Origin: Escherichia coli
Lineage (GTDB): Bacteria; Pseudomonadota; Gammaproteobacteria; Enterobacterales; Enterobacteriaceae
Reading direction: 5' to 3' (one strand)
Length of the DNA stretch: 64,000 bases
NCBI RefSeq assembly: GCF_003334305.1
Contig: NZ_QOWS01000002.1
This document shows positions 5,042-58,600 of this stretch, one piece after another. The notes under the pieces are model-generated. The model was not told where the DNA came from and ran no database searches. It saw only the letters and a program-made list of their open reading frames with translations. Position numbers and translations under genes: made by a program. Numbering within the stretch: position 1 is the first letter of the stretch; each line of letters starts with the position of its first letter.

Positions 5042-5284
5042 TGTTTTATCAGGCTCCTCCAGATAATTGTCGTCATGCCGGAAACCCCTGGCGGGGCTAT
5101 TTTACCGCGACAATTCATTCAGATCATCAATAGTCAGGGAAGGAAGTAGCAATATTAGCTAACTAATCAATGCGTTGATTGTAAATCCAGCTAAGAGGTG
5201 AGGTTTTCAGAGCAGACAACGGTGAAATGTCATGGTATTGTTACGTTTAGGTAACAAGAAATTTGTCTGCACAAGGATTACATC

Positions 5285-5542
5285 ATGATTATGGCGAAAC
5301 TGAAGTCAGCGAAAGGGAAGAAATTTCTCTTTGGTTTGTTGGCGGTTTTCATTATTGCGGCGTCGGTTGTGACTCGCGCGACTATCGGCGGCGTTATAGA
5401 ACAGTACAATATTCCGCTGTCTGAGTGGACGACATCAATGTATGTGATTCAGTCATCGATGATTTTTGTTTATAGCCTGGTCTTTACTGTGTTGCTGGCA
5501 ATCCCGTTGGGAATTTATTTCCTTGGCGGCGAAGAGCAGTAA
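5285..5542 (+). CDS. ynaJ: small inner-membrane protein YnaJ
   Basis: 85-aa ORF with two hydrophobic segments; synteny between ynaI and uspE. Confidence 0.7.
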   Translation: MIMAKLKSAKGKKFLFGLLAVFIIAASVVTRATIGGVIEQYNIPLSEWTTSMYVIQSSMIFVYSLVFTVLLAIPLGIYFLGGEEQ

Positions 5543-30738: not shown

Positions 30739-31065
30739 ATGAAGAAAACATTACTTCTTTGTGCGTTTCTTGTTGGGCTGGTAAGCAGCAATGTAATGGC
30801 ATTGACTCTGGATGAAGCCAGAACTCAGGGGCGGGTAGGTGAAACATTTTATGGTTATCTGGTTGCGCTGAAAACGGATGCTGAAACAGAGAAATTAGTA
30901 ACCGACATTAATGCCGAACGTAAAGCGAGTTACCAACAACTGGCAAAGCAAAATAATGTGTCTGTAGATGATATCGCGAAACTCGCCGGGCAAAAGCTCG
31001 TAGCTCGGGCCAAACCGGGGGAATATGTACAAGGGATAAACGGTAAATGGGTGCGAAAATTTTAA
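30739..31065 (+). CDS. ydbL: periplasmic DUF1318 protein YdbL
   Basis: Track ORF 30658-31065; start trimmed to the ATG pair at 30736/30739 just after the ynbE stop; signal peptide. Confidence 0.75.
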   Translation: MKKTLLLCAFLVGLVSSNVMALTLDEARTQGRVGETFYGYLVALKTDAETEKLVTDINAERKASYQQLAKQNNVSVDDIAKLAGQKLVARAKPGEYVQGINGKWVRKF

Positions 31066-31236
31066 TAGCAAAACCGCAATATCGGGATAACGCTACAGGA
31101 GAAAGCGATTGATCTATTTTCCTGAAACAAGGTGAATATTCAAAAACTCCTGTCAAATTGCCTTTCGCCCTGAAAAATGCATAGTCAAATATCTGTTTTA
31201 ACTAATTGGCGTTGCAGTACACACAACGCCAATTAG

Positions 31237-36455: not shown

Positions 36456-38099
36456 TTAATCGACAAAATCACCGTGCTGCCTGGCCACCAGCGTCAGAAT
36501 TGAATACAGCGCCACCGGGGTTTGATGCTGATTGAATACCTCTACCGCCCATTCCACCACACCTGTTGGTTTTTCTTCTGCGCTACGCTGTTTTTTCAGC
36601 GTCTTGCGCTTACAGGTGAGACGCACCTGGATGGTATCGCCTGGCTTTACGGGTTCGATAAAGCGCAAGTTTTCCAGCCCATAATTAGCAATGACCGGAC
36701 CGACACCGGCATCGACAAACAGACCCGCAGCCGCAGAAAGCACAAAATACCCATGCACCACACGCTCACCGAAAATAGATTCGGCAGCAGCAATCTTATC
36801 CATATGCGCATAGAAATGATCGCCGCTGAGGCAAGCAAAGTTAACAATATCGGCCTCTGTCATTGTGCGGCGGGGAGTCAGCAGGCTGTCGCCTGGTTGT
36901 AGCTCCTCAAAATATTTGCGGAACGGATGAATACGATCTTCTTCGACTTTCGCACCACGCACCCACTGTTTACTGATAGCTGCAAGCATCGTCGGACTAC
37001 CCTGAACAGCGGTTCGCTGCATGTAATGTTTCACCGCTCGTAAACCACCTAATTCTTCACCGCCTCCTGCGCGACCAGGCCCACCATGTAACAGTTGTGG
37101 CAGTGGGGAGCCATGCCCGGTGGATTCTTTTGCCGATTCCTCATTGAGGATCTGAATTCGCCCATGCGTACGTGCCGCGTCGGTAATAAACTGACGCGCA
37201 ATTTGCGGATCAGCCGTCACCAGCGTTCCCGCAAGGCTACCGCCGCCTGCACAAGCCAGTTGCAGAGCATGTCGCTGGTTTTGTGCTGGCATCAGCGTTG
37301 CGACAGGGCCAAAGGCTTCTGTTGCATGTACCGCCGGTGTTTCATCCGGCTGCGGACAGTACAATAAGGTTGGCGGGAAGAAGGCACCCGCAGCAGATAA
37401 ATCCGCCTGACCACCGAGGCGAATCTCGCATCCTGCAGCCAGCAATATGTTCACTTTTTCCTGCACATCGGCACGCTGCTCAGCATTTACCAGTGCGCCC
37501 ATTTTCACGCCTTCCTGAGCAGGATCACCGACCACGACTTTCTGTAATCGCGCAACCAGAGCATCACTGACAGCATTAACCAATGCCTGCGGCACAATAA
37601 TCCGCCGGATTGCCGTACATTTTTGCCCGGCTTTTGTGGTCATCTCACGCACAACTTCACGAATAAACAGCGCAAACTCCGGTTGATCCGGGGTGACATC
37701 TTCGCCCAGTACGCAGCAGTTCAGGGAATCAGCTTCCATAGTGAAGGGGATAGATTTGGCGACGATATTTGGCTGAACTCGCAGCATCTGTCCGGTCGCC
37801 GCTGACCCCGTGAAAGTCACCACATCCTGGCTGTCCAGATGATCCAAAAGGTCGCCCGCACTACCGCAGATCAGACTAATTGCGCCTTCGGGAACAAGAC
37901 CACTATCGACAATTGATTTCACCATCGCCTGAGTCAGTTGGGCCGTCGCGGTAGCTGGTTTGATGATGGCTGGCATTCCGCCCAGCCACGTTGGTGCCAG
38001 CTTTTCCAGCATTCCCCAGCAGGGGAAGTTAAAGGCGTTAATATGCACTGCCACGCCTGACTTTGAGGTCAGTACATGGCGCGCGGCAAATCCACCTTC
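36456..38099 (-). pseudogene. paaZ: paaZ, 5'-truncated (about 130 N-terminal codons missing)
   Basis: PaaZ-like frame continues upstream of the track GTG start (...[23 protein letters not shown]) and ends at an in-frame stop (rc TGA at 38100-38102) created at the junction; at most 548 codons versus about 681 recalled for intact PaaZ. Confidence 0.8.
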
Positions 38100-38100
38100 T

Positions 38101-39051
38101 CATTTGACCTTAAAAGCCAGTCTTGATGGTGAAGAATTACGCCGTTGTTACTCCATTTGCCGCAGCTACCTGCCTGGCGAAATTAGTGTGGCGGTGAAAG
38201 CCATTGAAGGCGGACGTTTCTCCCGCTATGCCCGCGAACACATCCGCCAGGGTATGACGCTGGAGGTCATGGTGCCGCAGGGGCATTTCGGCTATCAGCC
38301 ACAGGCCGAACGCCAGGGCCGCTATCTGGCTATTGCAGCAGGATCAGGTATTACGCCAATGCTGGCGATTATCGCCACCACTTTACAAACCGAGCCTGAA
38401 AGTCAGTTCACCCTGATCTACGGTAACCGTACCAGCCAGAGCATGATGTTTCGCCAGGCACTGGCAGACCTGAAAGACAAATATCCTCAGCGTTTACAGT
38501 TGTTGTGCATTTTCAGTCAGGAAACCCTCGACAGCGATCTGCTTCACGGGCGTATTGACGGTGAAAAATTACAGTCACTTGGGGCCTCGCTCATTAATTT
38601 TCGTCTTTATGATGAGGCATTTATTTGTGGTCCGGCGGCGATGATGGATGAGACGGAAGCCGCCTTAAAAGCACTGGGAATGCCAGATAAAACCATTCAT
38701 CTGGAGCGGTTTAATACGCCTGGCACGCGCGTCAAACGTAGCGTTAACGTGCAAAGTGACGGACAAAAAGTGACTGTACGTCAGGATGGGCGGGATCGGG
38801 AAATCGTGCTTAATGCCGACGATGAAAGCATTCTCGATGCGGCATTGCGCCAGGGGGCTGATCTGCCCTATGCCTGCAAAGGCGGCGTCTGTGCGACCTG
38901 CAAATGCAAAGTGCTGCGTGGCAAAGTGGCGATGGAAACCAATTACAGTCTGGAACCGGATGAACTGGCCGCAGGTTATGTGTTGAGTTGCCAGGCACTG
39001 CCGCTGACCAGCGATGTGGTGGTTGACTTTGACGCGAAGGGGATGGCATGA
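38101..39051 (+). pseudogene. paaE: paaE, 5'-truncated (about 40 N-terminal codons missing), fused in frame to antisense paaZ sequence
   Basis: PaaE-like sequence starts abruptly at HLTLKASLDGEELRRCYSICRS... at 38101; C-terminal 2Fe-2S motif (CKGGVCATCKC) intact. Confidence 0.8.
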
Positions 39052-39815
39052 GCGAACTGATCGTCAGCCGTCAGCAACAAGTATTGTTGCTGACCCTTAA
39101 CCGTCCCGCCGCACGTAATGCGCTAAATAATGCCCTTCTGACGCAACTGGTAAATGAACTGGAAGCTGCGGCTACCGATAGCAGCATTTCGGTCTGTGTG
39201 ATTACCGGTAATGCACGCTTTTTTGCCGCTGGGGCCGATCTCAACGAAATGGCAGAAAAAGATCTCGCGGCCACCTTAAACGATACACGTCCGCAGCTAT
39301 GGGCGCGATTGCAGGCCTTTAATAAACCACTTATCGCAGCCGTCAATGGTTACGCGCTTGGGGCGGGTTGCGAACTGGCATTGTTGTGCGATGTGGTGGT
39401 TGCCGGAGAGAACGCGCGTTTTGGGTTGCCGGAAATCACTCTCGGCATCATGCCAGGCGCAGGAGGAACGCAACGTTTAATCCGTAGTGTCGGTAAATCG
39501 TTAGCCAGCAAAATGGTGCTGAGCGGAGAAAGTATCACCGCTCAGCAAGCACAGCAGGCCGGGCTGGTTAGCGACGTCTTCCCCAGCGATTTAACCCTCG
39601 AATACGCCTTACAGCTGGCATCGAAAATGGCACGTCACTCGCCGCTGGCCTTACAAGCGGCAAAGCAAGCGCTGCGCCAGTCGCAGGAAGTGGCTTTGCA
39701 AGCCGGACTTGCCCAGGAGCGACAGTTATTCACCTTGCTGGCGGCAACAGAAGATCGTCATGAAGGCATCTCCGCTTTCTTACAAAAACGCACGCCCGAC
39801 TTTAAAGGACGCTAA
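39048..39815 (+). CDS. paaF: 2,3-dehydroadipyl-CoA hydratase (enoyl-CoA hydratase)
   Basis: 255-aa crotonase-fold ORF in paa synteny. Confidence 0.9.
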   Translation: MSELIVSRQQQVLLLTLNRPAARNALNNALLTQLVNELEAAATDSSISVCVITGNARFFAAGADLNEMAEKDLAATLNDTRPQLWARLQAFNKPLIAAVNGYALGAGCELALLCDVVVAGENARFGLPEITLGIMPGAGGTQRLIRSVGKSLASKMVLSGESITAQQAQQAGLVSDVFPSDLTLEYALQLASKMARHSPLALQAAKQALRQSQEVALQAGLAQERQLFTLLAATEDRHEGISAFLQKRTPDFKGR

Positions 39816-40603
39816 TGATGGAATTCATCCTCAGTCATGTAGAAAAGGGCGTGATGACACTAACGCTCAACCGCCCGGAACGCCTGAACAGTTTTAATGA
39901 TGAGATGCACGCACAACTGGCAGAGTGCCTGAAACAGGTCGAGCGCGACGACACTATCCGTTGCCTGTTACTTACAGGTGCCGGGCGCGGATTTTGTGCT
40001 GGTCAGGATCTTAACGATCGTAACGTTGATCCCACAGGCCCCGCACCGGATTTAGGGATGTCAGTTGAACGTTTCTATAACCCACTGGTACGTCGCCTGG
40101 CAAAACTGCCAAAACCGGTGATCTGTGCAGTCAATGGCGTGGCGGCAGGGGCAGGCGCAACACTGGCACTGGGGTGCGACATCGTTATTGCTGCCCGTTC
40201 AGCAAAATTCGTCATGGCGTTTAGTAAGTTAGGCTTAATACCCGATTGCGGTGGAACCTGGTTACTGCCACGCGTTGCTGGGCGAGCGCGCGCCATGGGG
40301 CTGGCACTGCTGGGGAATCAACTGAGTGCTGAACAGGCGCACGAATGGGGGATGATCTGGCAGGTTGTTGATGATGAAACGCTGGCAGATACCGCGCAAC
40401 AGCTGGCACGGCATCTGGCGACACAACCGACATTTGGTCTTGGACTTATCAAGCAAGCGATAAATAGCGCTGAAACCAATACGCTCGATACGCAACTGGA
40501 TCTGGAACGTGACTATCAGCGACTTGCCGGACGGAGCGCAGATTATCGTGAAGGTGTCAGTGCGTTCCTGGCTAAACGCTCACCGCAGTTCACGGGGAAA
40601 TAG
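39815..40603 (+). CDS. paaG: 1,2-epoxyphenylacetyl-CoA isomerase (crotonase family)
   Basis: 262-aa ORF, start overlaps paaF stop. Confidence 0.9.
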   Translation: MMEFILSHVEKGVMTLTLNRPERLNSFNDEMHAQLAECLKQVERDDTIRCLLLTGAGRGFCAGQDLNDRNVDPTGPAPDLGMSVERFYNPLVRRLAKLPKPVICAVNGVAAGAGATLALGCDIVIAARSAKFVMAFSKLGLIPDCGGTWLLPRVAGRARAMGLALLGNQLSAEQAHEWGMIWQVVDDETLADTAQQLARHLATQPTFGLGLIKQAINSAETNTLDTQLDLERDYQRLAGRSADYREGVSAFLAKRSPQFTGK

Positions 40604-40604
40604 C

Positions 40605-42032
40605 ATGATGATAAATGTGCAAACTGTGGCAGTGATTGGGAGCGGCACCATGGGGGCAGGCATTGCTGAAGTTGCCGCCAGTCATGGACATCAGGTTTTA
40701 CTGTATGACATTTCTGCTGAAGCGCTGACCCGCGCAATCGACGGGATACACGCGCGGCTAAATTCACGCGTGACGCGGGGAAAACTGACCGCTGAAACCT
40801 GTGAACGCACATTGAAACGCCTGATCCCGGTGACCGATATTCACGCGCTGGCAGCAGCGAATCTGGTTATTGAAGCGGCGTCTGAACGTCTGGAAGTTAA
40901 AAAAGCGCTCTTTGCACAACTGGCGGAAGTTTGCCCGCCACAAACGCTATTGACCACTAACACTTCGTCAATCTCTATAACCGCGATTGCTGCGGAGGTA
41001 AAAAATCCTGAACGTGTTGCGGGGCTGCATTTTTTTAACCCGGCACCGGTGATGAAGTTGGTGGAGGTGGTCAGTGGGCTGGCAACGGCAGCGGAAGTTG
41101 TCGAGCAGTTGTGTGAACTGACATTGAGTTGGGGTAAGCAGCCAGTGCGCTGTCATTCGACCCCCGGATTTATCGTTAACCGTGTTGCGCGTCCTTATTA
41201 TTCCGAGGCCTGGCGGGCACTGGAAGAGCAGGTTGCTGCACCAGAAGTGATTGACGCTGCACTTCGCGATGGCGCTGGTTTCCCGATGGGGCCGCTGGAA
41301 TTAACCGATCTGATTGGTCAGGACGTCAATTTTGCTGTCACCTGTTCGGTGTTTAACGCTTTCTGGCAGGAGCGTCGTTTTTTACCTTCGCTGGTGCAAC
41401 AGGAACTGGTGATTGGTGGACGGTTGGGCAAGAAAAGTGGGCTGGGCGTGTACGACTGGCGCGCGGAACGTGAGGCAGTTGTTGGCCTGGAAGCGGTAAG
41501 CGACAGTTTTAGCCCAATGAAAGTAGAAAAGAAAAGTGACGGTGTCACGGAAATTGACGATGTTTTATTGATTGAGACACAAGGCGAGACGGCACAGGCG
41601 CTGGCAACACGACTGGCGCGCCCGGTGGTAGTTATCGACAAAATGGCGGGCAAGGTGGTGACCATTGCTGCGGCAGCGGTGAACCCGGACTCAGCGACCC
41701 ACAAGGCCATTTATTACCTGCAACAGCAGGGCAAAACAGTGCTGCAAATTGCAGATTACCCAGGAATGCTGATTTGGCGAACGGTAGCAATGATCATCAA
41801 TGAAGCCCTTGATGCGCTGCAAAAAGGCGTGGCCTCTGAACAGGATATCGATACCGCCATGCGTCTTGGGGTGAATTATCCATATGGCCCGCTTGCCTGG
41901 GGAGCGCAACTTGGCTGGCAGCGAATATTAAGGCTCCTGGAAAATCTACAACATCACTATGGCGAAGAACGCTATCGCCCATGTTCATTGCTGCGCCAAC
42001 GGGCGCTTCTGGAGAGCGGTTATGAGTCATAA
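40605..42032 (+). CDS. paaH: 3-hydroxyadipyl-CoA dehydrogenase
   Basis: Track ORF 40509-42032; start trimmed to MMINVQTVAVIGSGTMG. Confidence 0.9.
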   Translation: MMINVQTVAVIGSGTMGAGIAEVAASHGHQVLLYDISAEALTRAIDGIHARLNSRVTRGKLTAETCERTLKRLIPVTDIHALAAANLVIEAASERLEVKKALFAQLAEVCPPQTLLTTNTSSISITAIAAEVKNPERVAGLHFFNPAPVMKLVEVVSGLATAAEVVEQLCELTLSWGKQPVRCHSTPGFIVNRVARPYYSEAWRALEEQVAAPEVIDAALRDGAGFPMGPLELTDLIGQDVNFAVTCSVFNAFWQERRFLPSLVQQELVIGGRLGKKSGLGVYDWRAEREAVVGLEAVSDSFSPMKVEKKSDGVTEIDDVLLIETQGETAQALATRLARPVVVIDKMAGKVVTIAAAAVNPDSATHKAIYYLQQQGKTVLQIADYPGMLIWRTVAMIINEALDALQKGVASEQDIDTAMRLGVNYPYGPLAWGAQLGWQRILRLLENLQHHYGEERYRPCSLLRQRALLESGYES

Positions 42033-42444
42033 GGCCTGGCAAAATGCCCATGCAATGTATGAGAACGATGCCTGCGCGAAAGCGCTTGGCATCGACATTA
42101 TCTCAATGGATGAAGGCTTTGCTGTAGTGACCATGACCGTCACTGTACAAATGCTTAATGGTCATCAAAGTTGCCACGGCGGGCAGCTATTTTCACTGGC
42201 TGATACTGCCTTTGCCTACGCCTGCAATAGCCAGGGGTTGGCAGCTGTCGCTTCTGCCTGCACGATTGATTTTTTACGTCCAGGCTTTGCCGGAGACACC
42301 TTAACTGCGACTGCGCAGGTTCGTCATCAGGGCAAGCAAACCGGTGTTTACGACATCGAAATTGTTAACCAACAACAAAAAACGGTTGCGCTGTTTCGCG
42401 GTAAATCTCACCGCATCGGCGGCACCATTATAGGAGAAGCCTGA
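42022..42444 (+). CDS. paaI: hot-dog-fold phenylacetyl-CoA thioesterase
   Basis: Track ORF 41959-42444; start trimmed to MSHKAWQ (140 aa). Confidence 0.85.
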   Translation: MSHKAWQNAHAMYENDACAKALGIDIISMDEGFAVVTMTVTVQMLNGHQSCHGGQLFSLADTAFAYACNSQGLAAVASACTIDFLRPGFAGDTLTATAQVRHQGKQTGVYDIEIVNQQQKTVALFRGKSHRIGGTIIGEA

Positions 42445-43649
42445 TGCGTGAAGCCTTTATTTGTGACGGAATTCGTACGCCAATTGGTCGCTACGGCGGG
42501 GCATTATCAGGTGTTCGGGCTGATGATCTGGCTGCTATCCCTTTGCGGGAACTGCTGGTGCGAAACCCGCGTCTCGATGCGGAGTGTATCGATGATGTGA
42601 TCCTCGGCTGTGCTAATCAGGCGGGAGAAGATAACCGTAACGTAGCCCGGATGGCGACTTTACTGGCGGGGCTGCCGCAGAGTGTTTCCGGCACAACCAT
42701 TAACCGCTTGTGTGGTTCCGGGCTGGACGCACTGGGGTTCGCCGCACGGGCGATTAAAGCGGGCGATGGCGATTTGCTGATCGCTGGTGGCGTGGAGTCA
42801 ATGTCTCGGGCACCGTTTGTTATGGGCAAGGCAACCAGTGCATTTTCTCGTCAGGCTGAGATGTTTGATACCACTATTGGCTGGCGATTTGTGAACCCGC
42901 TCATGGCTCAACAATTTGGAACTGACAGCATGCCGGAAACGGCAGAGAATGTAGCTGAACTGTTAAAAATCTCGCGAGAAGATCAAGATAGTTTTGCGCT
43001 ACGCAGTCAGCAACGTACGGCAAAAGCGCAATCCTCAGGCATTCTGGCTGAGGAGATTGTTCCGGTTGTGTTGAAAAACAAGAAAGGCGTTGTAACAGAA
43101 ATACAACATGATGAGCATCTGCGCCCGGAAACGACGCTGGAACAGTTACGTGGGTTAAAAGCACCGTTTCGTGCCAATGGGGTGATTACCGCAGGCAATG
43201 CCTCCGGGGTGAATGACGGAGCCGCTGCGTTGATTATTGCCAGTGAACAGATGGCAGCAGCGCAAGGACTGACGCCGCGGGCGCGTATCGTAGCCATGGC
43301 AACCGCCGGGGTGGAACCGCGTCTGATGGGGCTTGGTCCGGTGCCTGCAACTCGCCGGGTGCTGGAACGCGCGGGGCTGAGTATTCACGATATGGACGTG
43401 ATTGAATTGAACGAAGCGTTCGCGGCCCAGGCGTTGGGTGTACTACGCGAATTGGGGCTGCCTGATGATGCCCCACATGTTAACCCCAACGGAGGCGCTA
43501 TCGCCTTAGGCCATCCGTTGGGAATGAGTGGTGCCCGCCTGGCACTGGCTGCCAGCCATGAGCTGCATCGGCGTAACGGTCGTTACGCATTATGCACCAT
43601 GTGCATCGGTGTCGGTCAGGGCATCGCCATGATTCTGGAGCGTGTTTGA
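42444..43649 (+). CDS. paaJ: 3-oxoadipyl-CoA / 3-oxo-5,6-dehydrosuberyl-CoA thiolase
   Basis: 401-aa thiolase ORF. Confidence 0.9.
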
Positions 43650-43675
43650 GCATATCAACCTGCGAGTACCCTACA

Positions 43676-44989
43676 ATGATAACCAATACAAAGCTTGACC
43701 CGATTGAAACCGCGTCTGTTGATGAGTTACAGGCGTTGCAAACACAGCGTCTGAAATGGACGCTCAAACACGCGTATGAAAATGTCCCGATGTATCGGCG
43801 CAAATTCGACGCAGCAGGCGTACATCCTGATGATTTCAGGGAACTTTCAGACCTGCGTAAATTTCCCTGTACCACCAAACAGGATCTGCGCGACAACTAT
43901 CCCTTTGACACCTTTGCCGTGCCGATGGAACAAGTGGTGCGCATTCATGCTTCTTCGGGAACCACAGGTAAACCGACAGTTGTCGGTTATACGCAAAACG
44001 ATATTGATAACTGGGCCAATATTGTAGCGCGTTCTTTGCGTGCGGCAGGGGGCTCGCCCAAAGACAAAATTCATGTTGCCTATGGTTACGGCCTGTTTAC
44101 TGGTGGGCTGGGCGCGCACTATGGTGCCGAACGTCTGGGCGCTACGGTGATCCCGATGTCTGGCGGGCAGACGGAAAAACAAGCGCAACTGATCCGCGAT
44201 TTTCAACCAGATATGATCATGGTTACGCCATCTTATTGCCTTAACCTGATTGAAGAGCTGGAGCGGCAGTTGGGCGGTGATGCCAGCGGTTGCTCGCTGC
44301 GGGTTGGCGTGTTTGGTGCTGAGCCGTGGACACAGGCCATGCGTAAAGAGATTGAACGGCGTCTGGGGATCACCGCACTGGATATTTATGGCCTGTCAGA
44401 AGTGATGGGGCCGGGGGTGGCGATGGAGTGTCTGGAAACTACCGACGGTCCAACTATTTGGGAAGATCATTTCTATCCTGAAATTGTTAATCCTCATGAC
44501 GGCACACCGCTTGCCGATGGTGAACATGGCGAACTGTTATTCACCACGCTGACCAAAGAAGCATTGCCGGTCATTCGTTACCGCACGCGTGATTTAACCC
44601 GACTGTTACCAGGAACGGCGCGGACTATGCGCCGCATGGATCGCATCAGCGGACGCAGCGATGACATGTTGATTATTCGCGGTGTAAATGTCTTTCCGTC
44701 ACAACTGGAAGAAGAGATTGTCAAATTCGAACATTTATCGCCGCATTACCAACTGGAGGTGAACCGCCGGGGGCATCTTGATTCACTTTCTGTGAAAGTG
44801 GAGTTGAAAGAAAGTAGCCTGACATTGACGCATGAGCAGCGTTGCCAGGTATGCCACCAGCTGCGCCATCGGATTAAGTCGATGGTGGGGATCTCTACCG
44901 ATGTGATGATCGTTAACTGTGGCAGTATCCCGCGTTCAGAAGGCAAGGCGTGTCGGGTGTTTGATCTGCGCAATATTGTTGGTGCCTGA
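43676..44989 (+). CDS. paaK: phenylacetate-CoA ligase
   Basis: Track ORF 43592-44989; start trimmed to MITNTKLDP (437 aa). Confidence 0.9.
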   Translation: MITNTKLDPIETASVDELQALQTQRLKWTLKHAYENVPMYRRKFDAAGVHPDDFRELSDLRKFPCTTKQDLRDNYPFDTFAVPMEQVVRIHASSGTTGKPTVVGYTQNDIDNWANIVARSLRAAGGSPKDKIHVAYGYGLFTGGLGAHYGAERLGATVIPMSGGQTEKQAQLIRDFQPDMIMVTPSYCLNLIEELERQLGGDASGCSLRVGVFGAEPWTQAMRKEIERRLGITALDIYGLSEVMGPGVAMECLETTDGPTIWEDHFYPEIVNPHDGTPLADGEHGELLFTTLTKEALPVIRYRTRDLTRLLPGTARTMRRMDRISGRSDDMLIIRGVNVFPSQLEEEIVKFEHLSPHYQLEVNRRGHLDSLSVKVELKESSLTLTHEQRCQVCHQLRHRIKSMVGISTDVMIVNCGSIPRSEGKACRVFDLRNIVGA

Positions 44990-45050
44990 CGTGTCGTCTG
45001 GCCCTGGTGAGGTAAAGCGTCAGGGCCAGAAGTCGATACGACCTGTGCTA

Positions 45051-45089
45051 TGATTCATAAATCACAACAATAACAACAGACTGAATCGA
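45051..45089. promoter_or_regulatory. PaaX-operator-like inverted repeat TGATTC-N27-GAATCG abutting the paaX start
   Basis: TGATTC at 45051-45056 and GAATCG at 45084-45089, spacing counted as 27 nt; compare the described PaaX operator TGATTC-N27-GAATCA. Confidence 0.5.
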
Positions 45090-46040
45090 ATGAGTAAACT
45101 TGATACTTTTATCCAACATGCTGTAAACGCTGTTCCGGTCAGTGGCACATCTTTGATCTCCTCTCTGTATGGTGATTCGCTTTCCCATCGTGGTGGTGAA
45201 ATCTGGCTTGGTAGTCTGGCTGCTTTGCTGGAAGGGCTGGGATTTGGTGAGCGTTTCGTGCGCACTGCTTTGTTTCGTCTTAATAAAGAAGGCTGGCTGG
45301 ATGTTTCCCGCATCGGGCGACGCAGTTTCTATAGCCTCAGTGATAAAGGCTTGCGCCTGACGCGACGGGCAGAAAGTAAAATTTATCGCGCAGAGCAACC
45401 TGCATGGGATGGTAAATGGCTCCTGTTGCTCTCGGAAGGTTTAGATAAAGCGACGCTGGCTGATGTCAAAAAGCAGTTGATCTGGCAAGGTTTTGGCGCA
45501 CTGGCACCCAGCCTGATGGCATCGCCGTCGCAAAAACTGGCGGATGTACAGACACTTTTGCATGAAGCGGGGGTGGCGGATAACGTGATTTGTTTTGAAG
45601 CGCAAATACCACTGGCGCTTTCTCGCGCAGCACTGCGTGCCAGAGTAGAAGAGTGCTGGCATTTAACTGAACAAAATGCCATGTACGAAACCTTTATTCA
45701 GTCATTCCGCCCGCTGGTGCCGCTGTTAAAAGAGACGGCAGACGAGTTAACCCCGGAGCGTGCATTTCATATTCAGCTTTTACTGAGCCATTTTTATCGC
45801 CGTGTCGTCCTTAAAGACCCATTGTTGCCGGAGGAGTTGCTTCCGGCTCACTGGGCAGGGCATACGGCGCGTCAGCTGTGTATCAACATTTATCAGCGCG
45901 TAGCGCCTGCTGCTTTAGCGTTCGTTAGTGAAAAAGGTGAAACCTCAGTCGGTGAACTGCCTGCGCCGGGAAGCCTGTATTTTCAACGTTTTGGCGGCTT
46001 GAATATTGAACAGGAGGCGTTATGCCAATTTACCAGATAG
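45090..46040 (+). CDS. paaX: PaaX repressor of the phenylacetate catabolic genes
   Basis: 316-aa ORF in paa synteny. Confidence 0.9.
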
Positions 46041-46612
46041 ATGGTCTGACTCCGGTTGTGCCAGAAGAGAGCTTTGTCCATCCGACAGCGGTATTGATCG
46101 GCGATGTTATTCTCGGCAAGGGCGTTTACGTTGGGCCTAATGCCAGCCTGCGTGGCGATTTTGGTCGTATCGTGGTGAAAGATGGCGCGAACATTCAGGA
46201 TAATTGCGTTATGCACGGTTTTCCCGAGCAGGATACTGTCGTGGAAGAAGATGGGCATATTGGTCATAGCGCTATCCTTCACGGCTGCATTATCCGCCGC
46301 AATGCATTAGTGGGAATGAACGCGGTAGTGATGGACGGTGCGGTGATTGGCGAGAACAGCATTGTTGGCGCATCCGCATTTGTGAAAGCCAAAGCAGAAA
46401 TGCCTGCTAATTACCTGATTGTCGGCAGCCCGGCCAAAGCGATTCGTGAACTTAGTGAGCAGGAGTTGGCATGGAAAAAGCAGGGTACGCATGAGTACCA
46501 GGTGCTGGTGACACGCTGTAAGCTGACGTTGCATCAAGTCGAACCATTGCGGGAAGTTGAACCTGGCAGGCAGCGCCTGGTATTTGATGAGAATCTGCGA
46601 CCGAAACAGTAA
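46022..46612 (+). CDS. paaY: PaaY hexapeptide-repeat thioesterase
   Basis: 196-aa ORF overlapping the paaX stop. Confidence 0.9.
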
Positions 46613-46655
46613 CGTCCAGATACTGAACATTCTAATTTTTAGCATGTGATACCTA

Positions 46656-46688
46656 AACCGCAACGCTGATACAGGTTGCGGTTTTTTA
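46656..46688 (+). terminator. Rho-independent terminator of paaXY
   Basis: AACCGCAAC-loop-GTTGCGGTT followed by TTTTT. Confidence 0.7.
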
Positions 46689-46841
46689 TTGCCGGATGCG
46701 GTACTTGTCGCGTTTTGTTTTGTGTTTTTCAGGACAATAGAGCAACTCATCCAGTAATCTTGTTTACGCCCTCGCATTATTTATCTCTTTTCGTTTCTAT
46801 ACTGATTTTTCTTAATCCGTTTTATTACAGGGCAGGGTGCG

Positions 46842-47702
46842 ATGAGCAGCAATACATTTACTCTCGGTACAAAATCCGTTAACCGTCTTGGTTATGGCGC
46901 GATGCAACTGGCAGGTCCTGGGGTTTTTGGCCCCCCAAGAGATCGCCACGTCGCTATAACCGTGCTGCGCGAGGCGCTGGCATTGGGCGTCAATCACATT
47001 GATACCAGCGACTTTTATGGTCCGCACGTCACCAATCAGATTATCCGCGAAGCGCTTTATCCTTACTCTGACGACCTGACAATTGTCACTAAAATTGGTG
47101 CGCGGCGTGGAGAGGACGCTTCCTGGTTGCCCGCCTTTTCTCCGGCAGAGTTGCAAAAAGCGGTGCACGATAATCTACGTAATCTCGGCCTGGACGTACT
47201 GGATGTGGTTAACCTGCGCGTTATTATGGGGGATGGTCATGGCCCAGCGGAAGGATCGATTGAGGCCAGCCTGACCGTGCTGGCAGAGATGCAACAACAA
47301 GGCTTGGTAAAACATATTGGCCTGAGCAACGTCACACCGACGCAGGTTGCAGAGGCGCGCAAGATTGCCGAAATTGTCTGTGTGCAAAACGAATACAACA
47401 TCGCGCACCGTGCTGATGATGCAATGATTGATGCTTTGGCCCACGATGGCATTGCCTACGTGCCGTTCTTCCCGCTCGGGGGCTTTACACCGCTGCAATC
47501 CTCTACGCTGTCGGATGTTGCTGCGAGCCTGGGTGCAACACCCATGCAGGTGGCGCTGGCGTGGCTGTTACAACGTTCACCGAATATTTTGCTGATCCCA
47601 GGGACGTCTTCTGTTGCGCATTTACGGGAGAATATGGCTGCTGAAAAATTGCATCTTTCTGAGGAAGTGTTGTCTACGTTGGATGGTATTTCGCGAGAAT
47701 AA
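46842..47702 (+). CDS. ydbC: aldo-keto reductase family oxidoreductase
   Basis: 286-aa ORF. Confidence 0.85.
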   Translation: MSSNTFTLGTKSVNRLGYGAMQLAGPGVFGPPRDRHVAITVLREALALGVNHIDTSDFYGPHVTNQIIREALYPYSDDLTIVTKIGARRGEDASWLPAFSPAELQKAVHDNLRNLGLDVLDVVNLRVIMGDGHGPAEGSIEASLTVLAEMQQQGLVKHIGLSNVTPTQVAEARKIAEIVCVQNEYNIAHRADDAMIDALAHDGIAYVPFFPLGGFTPLQSSTLSDVAASLGATPMQVALAWLLQRSPNILLIPGTSSVAHLRENMAAEKLHLSEEVLSTLDGISRE

Positions 47703-47765
47703 CGAATATACAAAAGGGAAAGATGCATTTCCCTTTTGTTTCTTTTTTAATGGCATGGAGTGCAT

Positions 47766-50072
47766 ATGTTTAAGGCCAGGATTTGCGGCTGGATAGGTTT
47801 ACTTCCCCTGTTTATGCTGAGTCTTCCAGTACAGGCGGAACTTCGATGTGTTGCAAATACAGTTGATATTGAACCATTTTTTTCTGCGGCTACCGCTGAA
47901 GATAAACAACAAGTTGAACAAGCTATCAACAGTAGCGTGAATCTTGTCCCCTTCGGTTTATCTGCATCGGACTGGAAAGTGCATCGTGGCGATTTAGTGG
48001 TAGAAGGTAATATAGAGAGTAATCAAAAACTGATTGTTCTTGGTAATTTGACAGTCAAAGGTAATATTTCCACTTTCTCTCTTTCTAATCCATGGGTTAT
48101 TCTCGGTAACGTGACGGCAACGAATATAGTTACGGATTCACCACTGTTAATTACCGGTTCGATAAATGCAAGTGGACTGGTATTTATCGACTCATATTAC
48201 GATAATCCGTCTACGATTAAGGGGAGTATTAATGCGCGTGGGATATTTATCAATGACATAATTGCACCTGTTGTTGCGTCTTCGACAAATAGTGAATTCA
48301 TGGTCCGTGCGAGTGACAAAAATGACACTGAAAATGTCAAAAAAGCGCTGATGATAATAAATCCTGATGCATATTATTGGGGTCTAATAAATGATGAAGA
48401 TGCTCTGAAAGAAATTTTTAAGCGAAGCAATATTCGCATGGCAGGGAATGTCTGTAATCAGATGAAAAAAGAAGCGCTGTTTCGCCCTAAGCCTTCTCCT
48501 GAGTTAGTGCAGGAATTGCAAATGCTGGATGAAGGCAACGTTGCTGCATTTGAAGGACGAGATATTGCGACATTTGATCTTGCCATAATCCGAACTCTCC
48601 CAAGGCTTAAAGGAATTTCAGCTAACCTACGCAAACAACTTATTAATAGCAATGATGAACAAACGATTGAAAGTATGGCGAGATATATGCCTGACAATGA
48701 GATTCTGGAGTTGACCGATCAGCAATTGGGTTACCAGCCTGTTGTTCTGTGGTTGCTCGACCGTGAACCGCTCTCTGTCGAAATAATGACGCGAATGAGT
48801 CGTCTACCTGATGGTGTCGGTCCGTTGAATCTTGCGCTACGTGAAAATCTCCCTCTGGATATCGTAATGACTCTGGCGAAAAGAGATTGGGATATGATCA
48901 TTCAGGAGCTTTATAAAGATGCGTGGTTATTGCCTGAATCCATTATTGATGGCTATATCCGCAGTGATGATTCCTCTATTCGTCAGGTCGGTGCTGGAGG
49001 ACAACTCACCTACAATCAGGCAATGCAGTTGGCGAACGATTCATCAAACAATGTTGTCACAAGCTTAGCGTTCAAGCTGGCAGAGATGAAACACCATGGT
49101 CAATTATTGCGGATGACGCCACAAGAGAGTGACAAAGTTGCAGCCTATTTATACCAAAAATTCGAGAATGACGATGATCTAATACGTGTGTTATTTTTAG
49201 CATTGCCAGATAACTTACAGTTTAATTTTGTTAAAAGGATGGAGAAAAAATCCCCTGCCTACTTTTGCTGTCGGGATATGCAGGTAATTCACTCTGACGC
49301 TGCTCTACAACGGTTATTGACACGTTTCAACGATCCTGAGGGGTGGAGTAATCTGGCGAAAAATCAGTATCTGAGCACGTCGATGAAACAAAAAATTTGG
49401 CAACGTGCTTTATCGCATCGGAAAAATAATCCGAAAGCAGATTCAGCTGCGTATGAAACCAGCGCTGATATGATTTTGTCTGAGCTTATCAGCCACGGTG
49501 AAGTTGATGATCAGATGCTATTAAATGCCACAGCCCTGATACGTTTGGAAGACTGGGACTTTTTAGAGAGTGCATTAGTTAGTTGGGATAATTTACCCGC
49601 TGTTGTCCTCAAGGAATTACAGCAAAATACGCCACGCAATGATATTTGGGCGAAGTTTTTTCTGAGGCAGGAAAACAGCTCCCGTGCGCAGGTTGATGAA
49701 GCATTACGCGTCTATTATGCACTCGACCCCGATGCGTTAGCACAACTGGATGTACTGGCAAAACAACCGGATCGTATATGGTGGAGTACACTGGCGAAAA
49801 GCAATCTCACATTTTTCAAGTTCGGCGCACTTAACAACCGCCACACACCGCCTGCAGTACTGGCGGCAGAAATTGATCCCGAGTGGTGGATTGTGGCGAT
49901 GAATAATCCCCGTTTTCCAGTTGATGTATTAAAGGCGAGGCTGAAACGTGATCCTTTGCTGGCGTTAGAGCTTGTTAACCCTGAACTGGATTTAGTCCGC
50001 CAGCTGGCGCTTAACGGTAAGACGCGCGCAATACGGGAACAAGCGATGAGAAAACTTGATGAGTTGTATTGA
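47766..50072 (+). CDS. ydbD: uncharacterised secreted protein YdbD
   Basis: Track ORF 47760-50072; start at MFKARICGWIG; N-terminal signal peptide. Confidence 0.8.
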   Translation: MFKARICGWIGLLPLFMLSLPVQAELRCVANTVDIEPFFSAATAEDKQQVEQAINSSVNLVPFGLSASDWKVHRGDLVVEGNIESNQKLIVLGNLTVKGNISTFSLSNPWVILGNVTATNIVTDSPLLITGSINASGLVFIDSYYDNPSTIKGSINARGIFINDIIAPVVASSTNSEFMVRASDKNDTENVKKALMIINPDAYYWGLINDEDALKEIFKRSNIRMAGNVCNQMKKEALFRPKPSPELVQELQMLDEGNVAAFEGRDIATFDLAIIRTLPRLKGISANLRKQLINSNDEQTIESMARYMPDNEILELTDQQLGYQPVVLWLLDREPLSVEIMTRMSRLPDGVGPLNLALRENLPLDIVMTLAKRDWDMIIQELYKDAWLLPESIIDGYIRSDDSSIRQVGAGGQLTYNQAMQLANDSSNNVVTSLAFKLAEMKHHGQLLRMTPQESDKVAAYLYQKFENDDDLIRVLFLALPDNLQFNFVKRMEKKSPAYFCCRDMQVIHSDAALQRLLTRFNDPEGWSNLAKNQYLSTSMKQKIWQRALSHRKNNPKADSAAYETSADMILSELISHGEVDDQMLLNATALIRLEDWDFLESALVSWDNLPAVVLKELQQNTPRNDIWAKFFLRQENSSRAQVDEALRVYYALDPDALAQLDVLAKQPDRIWWSTLAKSNLTFFKFGALNNRHTPPAVLAAEIDPEWWIVAMNNPRFPVDVLKARLKRDPLLALELVNPELDLVRQLALNGKTRAIREQAMRKLDELY

Positions 50073-50242
50073 TCCACAACGTAATATTTCTTAACCCTTT
50101 GATTAATTGGGGATAATTATTCCTGACAGTGAGTCCCCAATACCTTGATATATTCTGAATTTTTAATGAAGCGGCGTGTTGCGATATCTCCGTCAGGGGA
50201 ATTGATGCACCATAGCGCAAACCGAATTATCAAGGATTGATA

Positions 50243-50848
50243 ATGACGCTCTACCAGATAAAACCGCTCTTTCAGTCGCTGTTAAGGCCGACGATGTTTT
50301 GGCTTTATAAGCACCACGTTACAGCGAATCACATCACTCTTACGGCACTGGCGCTTTCTCTTTTTACCGGATTGCTGTTGGTGTTGGTGGCACAACCCAT
50401 CCTCTTTTTGCTATTGCCCATCGTGCTTTTTATCCGTATGGCGCTCAATGCGCTGGATGGCATGTTGGCGCGTGAGTGCAATCAGCAAACACGTCTGGGG
50501 GCGATTTTGAATGAAACTGGCGATGTTATTTCCGATATTGCGCTCTATTTACCGTTTTTATTTTTACCGGAAAGTAACGCATCACTCGTAATACTCATGT
50601 TATTTTGCACCATATTGACTGAGTTTTGTGGTTTACTCGCGCAGACAATTAACGGTATTCGCAGTTATGCCGGTCCATTTGGCAAAAGCGATCGCGCGTT
50701 AATATTTGGTCTGTGGGGTCTGGCCGTTGCCATTTATCCACAGTGGATGCAGTGGAATAATCTTTTATGGAGCATTGCTTCAATTCTGCTTCTCTGGACT
50801 GCGATTAATCGTTGTCGGAGTGTGCTTCTTATGAGCGCTGAAAGATAA
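50243..50848 (+). CDS. ynbA: CDP-alcohol phosphatidyltransferase-family membrane protein
   Basis: Track ORF 50237-50848; multiple TM segments; start approximate. Confidence 0.8.
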   Translation: MTLYQIKPLFQSLLRPTMFWLYKHHVTANHITLTALALSLFTGLLLVLVAQPILFLLLPIVLFIRMALNALDGMLARECNQQTRLGAILNETGDVISDIALYLPFLFLPESNASLVILMLFCTILTEFCGLLAQTINGIRSYAGPFGKSDRALIFGLWGLAVAIYPQWMQWNNLLWSIASILLLWTAINRCRSVLLMSAER

Positions 50849-51744
50849 TGCTGGAAAAATCTCTGGCAACACTTTTCGCGTTGTTAATTTTAGCAACGCT
50901 GATAAACCATTTTCTGCTATGGCGGTTACCGGAGAGAAAAGAGGATGAAGTTACATTACGTATTCGTACCTGGTGGGGCATCGTCATTTGTTTTTCACTG
51001 GTGATTTCAGGTCCACGCTGGATGACGTTGACGTTTTTTGCGCTGATAAGTTTTCTGGCATTGAAAGAATATTGTACGCTTATATCTGTACATTTTCCGC
51101 GGTGGTTATATTGGGTTATTCCTCTTAACTATTTGTTTATCGGTTTTAATTGCTTTGAGCTGTATCTATTATTTATACCTTTGGCTGGGTTTCTAATATT
51201 AGCCACCGGGCAAGTTTTTATGGGGGACCCCTCCGGTTTTCTGCATACCGTGAGCGCCATTTTTTGGGGCTGGATAATGACCGTTTTCGCCTTGAGTCAT
51301 GCCGCCTGGTTATTAATGTTGCCAACCACAAATATCCAGGGCGGGGCGTTACTGGTGTTATTTCTTTTGGCATTAACCGAGTCAAACGATATTGCACAGT
51401 ATTTATGGGGGAAATCCTGCGGCAGAAGAAAAGTGGTCCCCAAAGTCAGCCCGGGAAAAACGCTGGAAGGTCTGGTGGGGGGCGTAATCACCACCATGAT
51501 TGCGTCACTGATTATTGGACCGTTGCTGACACCGCTAAATACATTACAGGCATTATTAGCGGGTTTGTTAATTGGTATTAGTGGTTTTTGCGGCGATGTC
51601 GTGATGTCAGCCATCAAACGAGATATTGGTGTTAAAGATAGTGGGAAACTATTACCAGGACATGGCGGACTCCTTGACAGGATTGACTCATTAATTTTCA
51701 CCGCTCCGGTATTTTTTTATTTTATTCGCTACTGCTGTTACTGA
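50848..51744 (+). CDS. ynbB: CDP-diglyceride synthetase (CdsA)-like membrane protein
   Basis: 298-aa polytopic ORF; start overlaps ynbA stop (ATGA). Confidence 0.8.
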   Translation: MLEKSLATLFALLILATLINHFLLWRLPERKEDEVTLRIRTWWGIVICFSLVISGPRWMTLTFFALISFLALKEYCTLISVHFPRWLYWVIPLNYLFIGFNCFELYLLFIPLAGFLILATGQVFMGDPSGFLHTVSAIFWGWIMTVFALSHAAWLLMLPTTNIQGGALLVLFLLALTESNDIAQYLWGKSCGRRKVVPKVSPGKTLEGLVGGVITTMIASLIIGPLLTPLNTLQALLAGLLIGISGFCGDVVMSAIKRDIGVKDSGKLLPGHGGLLDRIDSLIFTAPVFFYFIRYCCY

Positions 51745-51759
51745 AGGAAAATAGAGAAA

Positions 51760-54823
<3,064 letters not shown>

Positions 54824-54873
54824 GTGGATTGAGATGTGGACTGAACTACAGTCCACATCAAGATCGTGTCCGG

Positions 54874-55488
<615 letters not shown>

Positions 55489-55679
55489 TTATAGATGTTT
55501 GAATGGGCGATGCCCCGTTGCTTGCTGACACTTTATTCACAATCCTGCCACAGAGATAGCGCAATAAATCGAAGCCTATGTTCGAATTTATTGAACAACG
55601 CATAGAAAGCCGCGATGTGGTACTCTATATCTATCATTTAAAAGAAAATTAATCAGGCAGACTACTGCCCACTAACGTT

Positions 55680-58600
55680 ATGACAGAACAACAAAAATTG
55701 ACCTTTACGGCCTTGCAGCAGCGGCTGGATTCGCTGATGCTGCGCGACAGACTGCGTTTTTCTCGGCGTCTGCACGGTGTTAAGAAGGTTAAAAATCCTG
55801 ATGCACAACAGGCCATTTTCCAGGAGATGGCGAAAGAGATTGACCAGGCGGCAGGGAAAGTCCTGCTGCGTGAAGCGGCACGACCGGAAATTACTTATCC
55901 TGACAATTTACCTGTTAGTCAGAAAAAACAGGACATTCTCGAAGCGATTCGTGATCACCAGGTGGTGATCGTCGCCGGGGAAACGGGTTCTGGTAAAACG
56001 ACTCAGTTACCGAAAATCTGTATGGAGCTGGGGCGCGGGATTAAAGGGCTGATCGGCCATACCCAGCCGCGTCGCCTGGCGGCAAGAACGGTGGCGAACC
56101 GTATTGCGGAAGAGCTGAAAACGGAGCCGGGCGGTTGCATCGGTTACAAAGTGCGTTTCAGCGATCACGTTAGTGATAACACGATGGTCAAGCTGATGAC
56201 CGACGGTATCCTGCTGGCGGAGATCCAGCAAGACCGCCTGCTGATGCAGTACGACACCATCATTATTGACGAAGCACACGAACGCAGCCTGAATATCGAT
56301 TTTCTGCTCGGCTATTTGAAAGAGTTGCTGCCGCGGCGTCCTGACCTAAAAATCATTATCACTTCCGCGACTATCGACCCGGAACGCTTTTCGCGCCACT
56401 TTAATAATGCGCCGATTATCGAAGTCTCCGGTCGGACCTATCCGGTGGAAGTGCGCTATCGACCGATTGTTGAAGAAGCCGACGACACCGAGCGCGATCA
56501 GTTGCAGGCGATTTTTGACGCCGTAGACGAACTGAGTCAGGAAAGCCCTGGCGACATTCTGATCTTTATGAGTGGTGAGCGGGAAATTCGCGATACCGCC
56601 GATGCGCTGAACAAGCTAAATCTGCGTCATACCGAAATCTTGCCGCTTTATGCGCGGCTTTCGAACAGCGAACAGAACCGCGTGTTCCAGTCGCACAGCG
56701 GACGGCGCATTGTGCTGGCGACCAACGTCGCGGAAACCTCGCTGACCGTACCGGGGATTAAATACGTTATCGACCCCGGTACAGCACGTATCAGCCGCTA
56801 CAGCTATCGCACCAAAGTGCAGCGTTTGCCGATTGAACCCATTTCGCAGGCGTCTGCCAATCAGCGTAAAGGCCGCTGTGGGCGTGTGTCCGAAGGGATC
56901 TGTATTCGTCTCTATTCCGAAGACGATTTCCTTTCGCGCCCGGAGTTTACCGATCCGGAGATTCTGCGTACCAACCTGGCCTCGGTTATTTTGCAGATGA
57001 CCGCGCTGGGGCTGGGCGATATCGCTGCGTTCCCGTTTGTCGAAGCACCGGATAAACGCAATATCCAGGATGGCGTGCGTCTGCTCGAAGAACTGGGCGC
57101 GATCACCACGGATGAACAGGCCAGCGCCTATAAACTGACGCCGCTCGGTCGCCAGCTCTCGCAGTTGCCTGTCGACCCACGTCTGGCGCGTATGGTGCTG
57201 GAAGCGCAGAAACATGGCTGCGTGCGTGAGGCGATGATTATCACGTCCGCGCTCTCCATTCAGGACCCGCGTGAGCGGCCGATGGACAAACAGCAGGCAT
57301 CGGACGAAAAACATCGTCGCTTCCACGACAAAGAATCCGACTTCCTCGCGTTTGTAAATCTGTGGAATTATCTTGGCGAGCAGCAAAAGGCGCTTTCTTC
57401 CAACGCCTTCCGTCGCCTGTGTCGTACCGATTACCTCAACTATCTGCGCGTGCGCGAATGGCAGGATATCTACACCCAGTTGCGTCAGGTGGTGAAAGAA
57501 CTTGGCATTCCGGTTAACAGCGAACCGGCGGAGTATCGCGAAATTCACATTGCGTTGCTGACGGGTTTACTTTCCCATATCGGCATGAAAGATGCCGATA
57601 AACAAGAATATACCGGCGCACGTAACGCGCGTTTCTCCATCTTCCCCGGTTCTGGTTTATTCAAAAAACCGCCGAAATGGGTAATGGTGGCGGAACTGGT
57701 AGAAACCAGCCGCCTGTGGGGGCGCATTGCTGCGCGTATCGACCCGGAATGGGTGGAGCCTGTCGCTCAGCATTTGATTAAACGTACCTACAGCGAACCG
57801 CACTGGGAACGGGCGCAGGGCGCGGTGATGGCAACGGAAAAAGTCACTGTTTATGGTTTGCCGATTGTTGCCGCGCGCAAGGTCAACTACAGCCAGATCG
57901 ATCCGGCGTTATGTCGTGAACTCTTTATTCGCCATGCGCTGGTGGAAGGTGACTGGCAGACGCGTCACGCATTCTTCCGTGAAAACCTGAAACTGCGGGC
58001 CGAAGTGGAAGAGCTGGAACACAAATCACGTCGCCGCGATATTCTGGTTGATGACGAAACGTTGTTTGAGTTCTACGACCAGCGCATCAGCCACGATGTG
58101 ATCTCTGCGCGCCACTTCGATAGCTGGTGGAAAAAAGTCAGCCGCGAAACGCCTGATTTGCTCAACTTTGAAAAAAGCATGTTGATCAAAGAGGGCGCAG
58201 AAAAAATCAGCAAGCTGGATTACCCGAACTTCTGGCATCAGGGCAATCTCAAGCTGCGTTTGAGCTATCAGTTTGAGCCCGGCGCGGATGCTGACGGTGT
58301 GACCGTACATATTCCGCTGCCGTTACTTAACCAGGTTGAGGAAAGCGGGTTTGAATGGCAGATCCCCGGTCTGCGCCGCGAACTGGTGATTGCTCTGATT
58401 AAATCGTTGCCGAAACCGGTACGCCGTAATTTTGTACCCGCGCCAAACTATGCCGAAGCGTTTTTAGGCCGCGTCAAACCGCTGGAGTTACCGTTGCTCG
58501 ACAGCCTTGAGCGCGAGTTACGGCGGATGACCGGCGTTACCGTTGACCGCGAAGACTGGCACTGGGATCAGGTGCCCGATCACCTGAAAATCACCTTCCG

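Follow-up and report, generated by a model that had tools for sequence, protein, structure and literature searches.

The window, i.e., the whole stretch of 64,000 nucleotides of Escherichia coli DNA analysed here, carries paaY and pdxI as immediate neighbours on the plus strand. paaY (46022-46612) is an intact listed ORF of 196 amino acids that ends in the stop codon TAA at 46610-46612; its product reaches 375 bits against the NCBIfam profile TIGR02287 (the PaaY equivalog; cutoff 319.6), and PGAP gives the name paaY to the identical sequence in other genomes. pdxI, previously named ydbC (46842-47702), is likewise an intact listed ORF, of 286 amino acids, encoding an aldo-keto reductase annotated as pyridoxine 4-dehydrogenase; it scores 557 bits against the subfamily profile NF007695 of NCBIfam (cutoff 280), and pdxI is its RefSeq/PGAP name on identical sequence. 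The spacer between them (46613-46841) measures exactly 229 bp, in line with the figure of about 230 bp given in an earlier, sequence-only reading of this DNA. That reading also stated that the spacer holds neither an autotransporter-like nor a transposase ORF, and on this point the ORF list, tblastn, and blastn agree. The ORF list shows neither kind of ORF in 46613-46841; two intact YdbA proteins gave no tblastn match at E ≤ 1e-3 against the whole 64-kb window, which by this search does not encode a BigA/YdbA autotransporter gene with passenger repeats and a C-terminal beta-barrel; and blastn of the K-12 IS2/IS30 segment and both ydbA halves against the window gave no match either. Rfam models gave no match to the spacer at E ≤ 1, and the idea of a functional RNA was dropped.

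The K-12 locus is organised differently. In strain AB1157 the order is paaY, a 21-amino-acid ORF (which we take to be ynbG), ydbA' (2.5 kb, pseudogene), IS2, IS30, 'ydbA (3.5 kb, pseudogene), and pdxI. This annotation bears out the statement of the earlier reading that in K-12 the interval is occupied by a ydbA pseudogene split by IS2 and IS30, and paaY and pdxI are not adjacent there, since the ydbA halves and both IS elements lie between them. The window shares with K-12 the flanking genes and their order, and the segment from the ydbA stop to the pdxI start is colinear in the two, with a few bases different. YdbA is non-functional in both; however, K-12 ydbA was inactivated via IS insertion and ca. 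6 kb of its coding sequence was kept, whereas the window keeps only ca. 18 nt, and the 330-bp paaY-ydbA intergenic region, the hairpin that belongs to paaY itself, and the 21-amino-acid ORF are gone. In K-12 coordinates the segment missing from the window amounts to 8,922 nt, of which ca. 2.6 kb is IS2 plus IS30.

Other E. coli lineages carry ydbA directly upstream of pdxI. ST131 strain EC958 has only a 3' fragment of paaY, followed by an intact ydbA of 2,838 amino acids; the O157-like RM19259 lacks the paa cluster and has ydbA split in two; avian strain DG351-2 also lacks the paa cluster and has an intact ydbA of 1,949 amino acids. The YdbA of DG351-2 aligns with the BigA autotransporter adhesin family (NCBIfam NF033178) through its C-terminal end, but its score of 2,063 bits lies below the cutoff of 3,400 bits for BigA proper, and YdbA is therefore a relative of BigA and not BigA itself. 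Nothing of a BigA-family protein is encoded in the window.

The paaY-pdxI junction at base level

The spacer was aligned with the two K-12 junctions and with ST131 EC958, O157-like RM19259, and avian DG351-2. On the left, homology with K-12 extends through paaY and one base further: the C at 46613 has its K-12 counterpart in the first base 3' of the paaY stop, and homology of the left flank stops there. The same is seen in paaY-pdxI genomes generally, where matches to a probe for the K-12 left junction stop at query position 160, one base 3' of the paaY stop. Then follows a short filler, CGTCC (46613-46617, assigned to neither strand), which is identical in the two junction haplotypes described below and is counted here as 4-5 nt (GTCC or CGTCC). 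On the right, the window is colinear from 46626 to the pdxI start with the last ydbA codons and everything up to pdxI in ydbA-bearing genomes, and in every one of the ydbA-bearing genomes listed homology with the window breaks at that one base, 46626.

Between the filler and the former 3' untranslated region lies an 18-nt remnant of ydbA, from the 3' end of its ORF (46618-46635, plus strand), identified by base-level alignments and reading AGATACTGAACATTCTAA. It corresponds to ydbA TGATGCTG(AACTTCAAGAA)AACGTTCTAA, of which the 11 nt in parentheses are absent, and it carries three substitutions. The whole junction of the window thus reads TAA, CGTCC, AGATACTGAACATTCTAA, and TTTTTAGCATGTGA in succession. 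All ydbA alleles examined end in GTGATGCTGAACTTCAAGAAAACGTTCTAA and continue past the stop with TTTTTAGC, which holds in four E. coli lineages (in a longer view, GGCGTGATGCTGAACTTCAAGAAAACGTTCTAA followed by TTTTTAGCATGTGA), and the ydbA ends of Pseudocitrobacter and of a divergent Escherichia are nearly identical to those of E. coli, with one or two bases different. At the same boundary the window has AGATACTGAACATTCTAA followed by TTTTTAGC. Because the alleles share this end and the window is colinear with it, the former ydbA stop codon can be placed at 46633-46635. The empty site thus retains internal sequence of the missing gene, i.e., its stop codon within a stretch of ca. 18 nt.

A second haplotype, exemplified by strains 500111 and RCAD0514, reads TAA, CGTCC, and TGATGCTGGACGTTCTAA. 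This type II junction is closer to ydbA: 8 of 8 bases match, then comes the 11-nt gap with AAC repeats flanking it, and then 9 of 10 bases match. The two haplotypes differ at 4 of 17 remnant positions, while the adjacent spacer differs far less; such a concentration of the divergence in the remnant would fit relaxed constraint on it.

A match this short could be due to chance. When the 23-nt junction was aligned freely and locally with the last 300 nt of ydbA and with the whole 8.9-kb K-12 segment, shuffled sequences reached the observed score in 315 of 5,000 cases for the window haplotype (p ~0.06) and in 83 of 5,000 for the other (p ~0.017), and chance matches to the 23-nt junction of equal or better score occur elsewhere in the K-12 segment. 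This test was only weakly significant and was replaced as evidence by an anchored positional one, which is the proper test because homology of the spacer crosses the ydbA stop codon unbroken. With random 23-mers the probability of at least 9 of 10 anchored matches is 1e-5 to 4e-5, that of the full type I (window) pattern is 2.5e-6 to 5e-6, and the type II pattern was not encountered in 400,000 random 23-mers. The short match is weak by itself, and the case therefore rests on its position and contiguity.

Distribution of the junction and gene order in outgroups

Of 5,426 complete E. coli genomes, 2,042 (~38%) contain the full length of a 121-bp probe spanning the junction, with an identity of at least 95.6% in every match listed, and a query from paaY to pdxI was covered for at least 80% in 2,035 of the same 5,426. 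The absence of ydbA from this position is, therefore, an ordinary difference between strains. About three-quarters of the scars appear to be of the window type and about one-quarter of the other, an estimate derived from identity bins and not a count. The left junction of paaY, or a fragment of it, with ydbA was found in 1,932 genomes, ydbA-type sequence to the left of the equivalent of 46626 in ca. 3,160, and, by megablast, a K-12-like barrel end in at least 2,531. Expectations based on K-12 (ydbA, the 21-amino-acid ORF, IS2, and IS30) are thus wrong for more than one-third of E. coli genomes, and strain typing could use the two haplotypes of the junction as simple markers of lineage. The O26 and O111 strains presumably belong to phylogroup B1. 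In strain HB-Coli0 a core of 1.7 kb is identical to the window and the flanks differ at 101 of 13,681 positions.

Outside E. coli, the position is occupied in outgroups among the matches listed, a handful that did not include E. fergusonii and E. marmotae. Pseudocitrobacter faecalis has the order paaX-paaY-ydbA homologue-pdxI-azoR, and a divergent Escherichia genome has ydbA-pdxI-azoR. E. albertii, the closest named outgroup, has neither paa nor ydbA, and its ydbL adjoins pdxI. The ydbL-pdxI spacer of this species (5298-5522 in the numbering of its own locus) aligns over its full length with the ydbA-pdxI spacer, and a degenerate version of the last ca. 21 nt of ydbA, matching at ca. 14 of 22 positions, directly follows the ydbL stop. 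This scar has the same shape as that of E. coli, the stop of an upstream gene fused to the end of ydbA and a diverged spacer, and its right end falls within ca. 10 nt of the E. coli one; the left partner, however, is ydbL and not paaY, and the event also removed or predated the paa cluster. E. albertii appears, therefore, to represent a second, independent loss of ydbA, for which the remnant match is suggestive.

Several other polymorphisms surround the locus. Relative to near-identical genomes such as NCTC9088, the window has a 3,308-bp deletion at 38100/38101 (context 36456-39051), which takes the 5' part of paaZ, the divergent paaZ-paaA promoter region, paaA, paaB, paaC, paaD, and the first ca. 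120 nt of paaE. Its junction joins CACCTTCT to CATTTGAC with no obvious microhomology. Judged from these gene losses, phenylacetate catabolism should be non-functional in this strain in its ring-epoxidase half, with paaFGHIJK-paaXY kept. Strain A7, from an orangutan (NZ_CP028767.1), carries the same deletion and is 100% identical to the window over 38000-58000. On the other side of the spacer, a ydbD-ynbABCD block (47760 to about 54800) lies between pdxI and azoR in the window. It is absent in ST131 EC958, the divergent Escherichia, Pseudocitrobacter, Kluyvera, and Enterobacter, where pdxI and azoR are directly convergent; at least one of the block genes, ydbD, is present in E. albertii. The block seems to be an insertion that some Escherichia have and others lack. 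The fea-paa cluster, too, is present in some strains and absent from others, and a GAAACA repeat stands at its edges (window 31063-31130): the edge downstream of ydbL ends in CCTGAAACA, and that at the paaY end in CCGAAACAGTAA (K-12 locus 5050-5080). In strain A13, which lacks the cluster, the junction (locus 2438-2510) reads GAAACA followed by TTTTGCTC and joins the K-12 sequence ca. 19 nt past the paaY stop, i.e., within ca. 17 nt of the left breakpoint of the ydbA deletion.

Origin of the empty site

The paaY-pdxI spacer is very probably the scar of one old deletion of ydbA, a gene for an autotransporter adhesin of the BigA family. This interpretation builds on direct observations of colinearity, of the remnant, of a junction common to many genomes, and of gene order in outgroups. 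The deletion would have taken the paaY-ydbA intergenic region and the ydbA ORF save its last ca. 29 nt, and with them the terminator-like hairpin of paaY, the 21-amino-acid ORF annotated in K-12, the ydbA promoter region, and nearly the whole ydbA ORF. In K-12 coordinates this would represent ca. 6.3 kb of non-IS DNA, or roughly 6-9 kb depending on the ydbA allele. The breakpoints lie one base 3' of the paaY stop and ca. 29 nt 5' of the ydbA stop, with the 4-5-nt filler between them. A second deletion, of 11 nt between AAC repeats, cut the remnant further, and the window haplotype later gained three more substitutions in it, which fits a sequence free of selection. The shared left breakpoint, filler, and 11-nt gap of the two haplotypes argue for one ancestral event. 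The present strain may have inherited the allele vertically or acquired it through homologous recombination with a lineage without ydbA, and the cell would simply be without the YdbA surface protein.

Three mechanistic details were considered for the junction and rejected. GATG occurs on both sides of the main junction in K-12, but the observed TAAC-GTCC-TGATG does not match the product that microhomology at this motif predicts. The K-12 intergenic region does contain GTCC, 18 nt further in, but four matching bases are no evidence that the filler was derived from it. Deletion mediated by an IS element was set aside, as the window holds no IS2/IS30 DNA, the spacer no transposase ORF, and the junction no target-site duplication.

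The sequence-only reading had left it undecided whether ydbA was never present in this lineage or was cleanly lost from it. The remnant, together with the ydbA-pdxI order in diverse E. coli and in outgroups, which have ydbA at this very position, argues for loss, and the first branch does not stand. That ydbA-derived sequence might persist in the spacer had been named in that reading as evidence against it; such sequence was indeed found on aligning, and it disposes of the 'never had' branch only. As for 'cleanly', this is nearly right for the left break, one base past the paaY stop, but not for the filler of 4-5 nt and the secondary gap of 11 nt.

It is very improbable that the empty site is ancestral and that other lineages acquired ydbA by insertion between paaY and pdxI. 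The patchy carriage of ydbA in what is a known zone of heterogeneity (Goldstone et al. 2016; PMC4951805) and the presence in E. albertii of pdxI without ydbA would agree with it. However, the empty site holds the ydbA stop and last codons, which encode the conserved C-terminus of the BigA-family barrel, so that an inserted gene would need to borrow its own C-terminus from its target. Intact YdbA aligns with the BigA profile to its last position (1874 of 1875); the surviving codons are therefore part of the gene and not of a target site. In addition, ydbA adjoins pdxI in E. coli strains of several divergent backgrounds as well as in a second genus, with the same order paaXY-ydbA-pdxI, and we regard the idea of an ancestral empty site as close to refuted. 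Alternatively, ydbA may have been replaced, in that entry of the fea-paa cluster with its right end at the 3' end of ydbA displaced the gene in one step. The left breakpoint 1 nt past the paaY stop does lie near the edge of the fea-paa polymorphism of strain A13, ca. 19 nt past the same stop (ca. 17 nt apart), and the GTCC filler could have come from a donor. Yet colinearity of the window with K-12 extends over ydbL, paaY, and all that lies between them, and TAACGTCC was not seen behind paaY in any donor; Pseudocitrobacter has a different sequence there. A 3' fragment of paaY precedes ydbA in ST131 and paaY precedes it in Pseudocitrobacter; this arrangement is therefore old, and one deletion from it requires fewer steps. 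Replacement thus seems improbable. An assembly artefact or a recent deletion private to this strain, e.g., IS-mediated, could have been suspected since ydbA is long and internally repetitive and can collapse in draft assemblies, and since the two IS elements inside K-12 ydbA could drive deletions. The occurrence of the identical junction in 2,042 complete genomes refutes this, no IS sequence or target-site duplication is present, and the scar is old enough to have split into two haplotypes, which leaves this explanation with practically no probability.

Terminators, pdxI, and the loss of ydbA

The deletion of ydbA would also have changed what follows paaY. The segment 46636-46690 (plus strand) is the former 3' untranslated region of ydbA, colinear with the sequence after the ydbA stop in K-12, EC958, RM19259, and DG351-2, and contains a hairpin resembling an intrinsic terminator. 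Its arms lie at 46655-46664 and 46675-46684 and its T-run at 46682-46690, reading TTTTTTATT; a G+C-rich stem-loop directly before a T run, as expected of an intrinsic terminator, is thus present at 46655-46690. For the 61 nt from 46640 to 46700, which include this hairpin, the folding energy is -23.1 kcal/mol (z = -3.6). A consensus scan did not have this hairpin in its list, for which we assume that the loop, being above the limit of the scan, is the reason. In K-12 a different hairpin lies close to paaY (-17.5 kcal/mol, z = -4.9), and this one is missing from the window. The spacer hairpin had earlier been taken as the terminator of paaY, a mis-assignment, as in every ydbA-bearing genome examined it comes after the ydbA stop codon. 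By position, the ydbA hairpin is now the first terminator-like structure 3' of paaY, and paaXY transcripts would now stop at the former ydbA terminator. In annotating lineages with the scar, the terminator behind paaY should thus be read as borrowed from ydbA.

The region upstream of pdxI (46691-46841, plus strand) can be aligned position by position with the spacer that separates ydbA from pdxI in genomes that have ydbA, and the deletion left it unaltered; pdxI would, therefore, keep its own upstream region and regulation. A consensus scan of 46691-46841 for sigma-70-like promoter sites found none. At 46690-46701 there is a REP-like half-site, TGCCGGATGCGG, which is all that the E. coli ydbA-pdxI spacer retains; at the equivalent position, the spacers of the divergent Escherichia and of Pseudocitrobacter have two complete REP-like palindromes in inverted arrangement.

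Goldstone et al. (2016; PMC4951805) described the paa/ydbA locus as a region of genomic heterogeneity: ydbA is full-length in about 42% of phylogroup A, some isolates have lost paaZABCDE, and parts of the paa cluster are likewise carried variably. The deletion at 38100/38101 resembles those paaZABCDE-type deletions. Since variable ydbA is already reported there, the absence of ydbA represents a common and recognised polymorphism. The part of that paper drawn on here treats the gene at the level of presence or absence, without a base-level junction, a remnant, or an argument on polarity; the base-level scar and the reassignment of the terminator are small refinements of this known polymorphism. 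Beyond annotation, where the paaY-pdxI spacer of these lineages is to be read as a deletion scar, their significance is slight. They do provide another case of the repeated loss of a large autotransporter adhesin, next to erosion of the phenylacetate pathway in the same strain.

A broader and rather doubtful proposal is that loss of ydbA has been selected for recurrently across Escherichia. Separate inactivations comprise the IS insertions in K-12, the split ORF in the O157-like strain, and the deletion scar in ca. 38% of E. coli, and the deletions in E. albertii and E. coli both appear to end within ca. 20-30 nt of the ydbA stop with the downstream segment kept. If the proposal is true, expression of so large an adhesin on the cell surface may be selected against, for instance if it serves as an antigen or as a phage receptor, and selection may also keep the terminator, which shields pdxI from transcription entering from upstream. 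The left breakpoint near the fea-paa edge could mark a fragile or recombinogenic spot.
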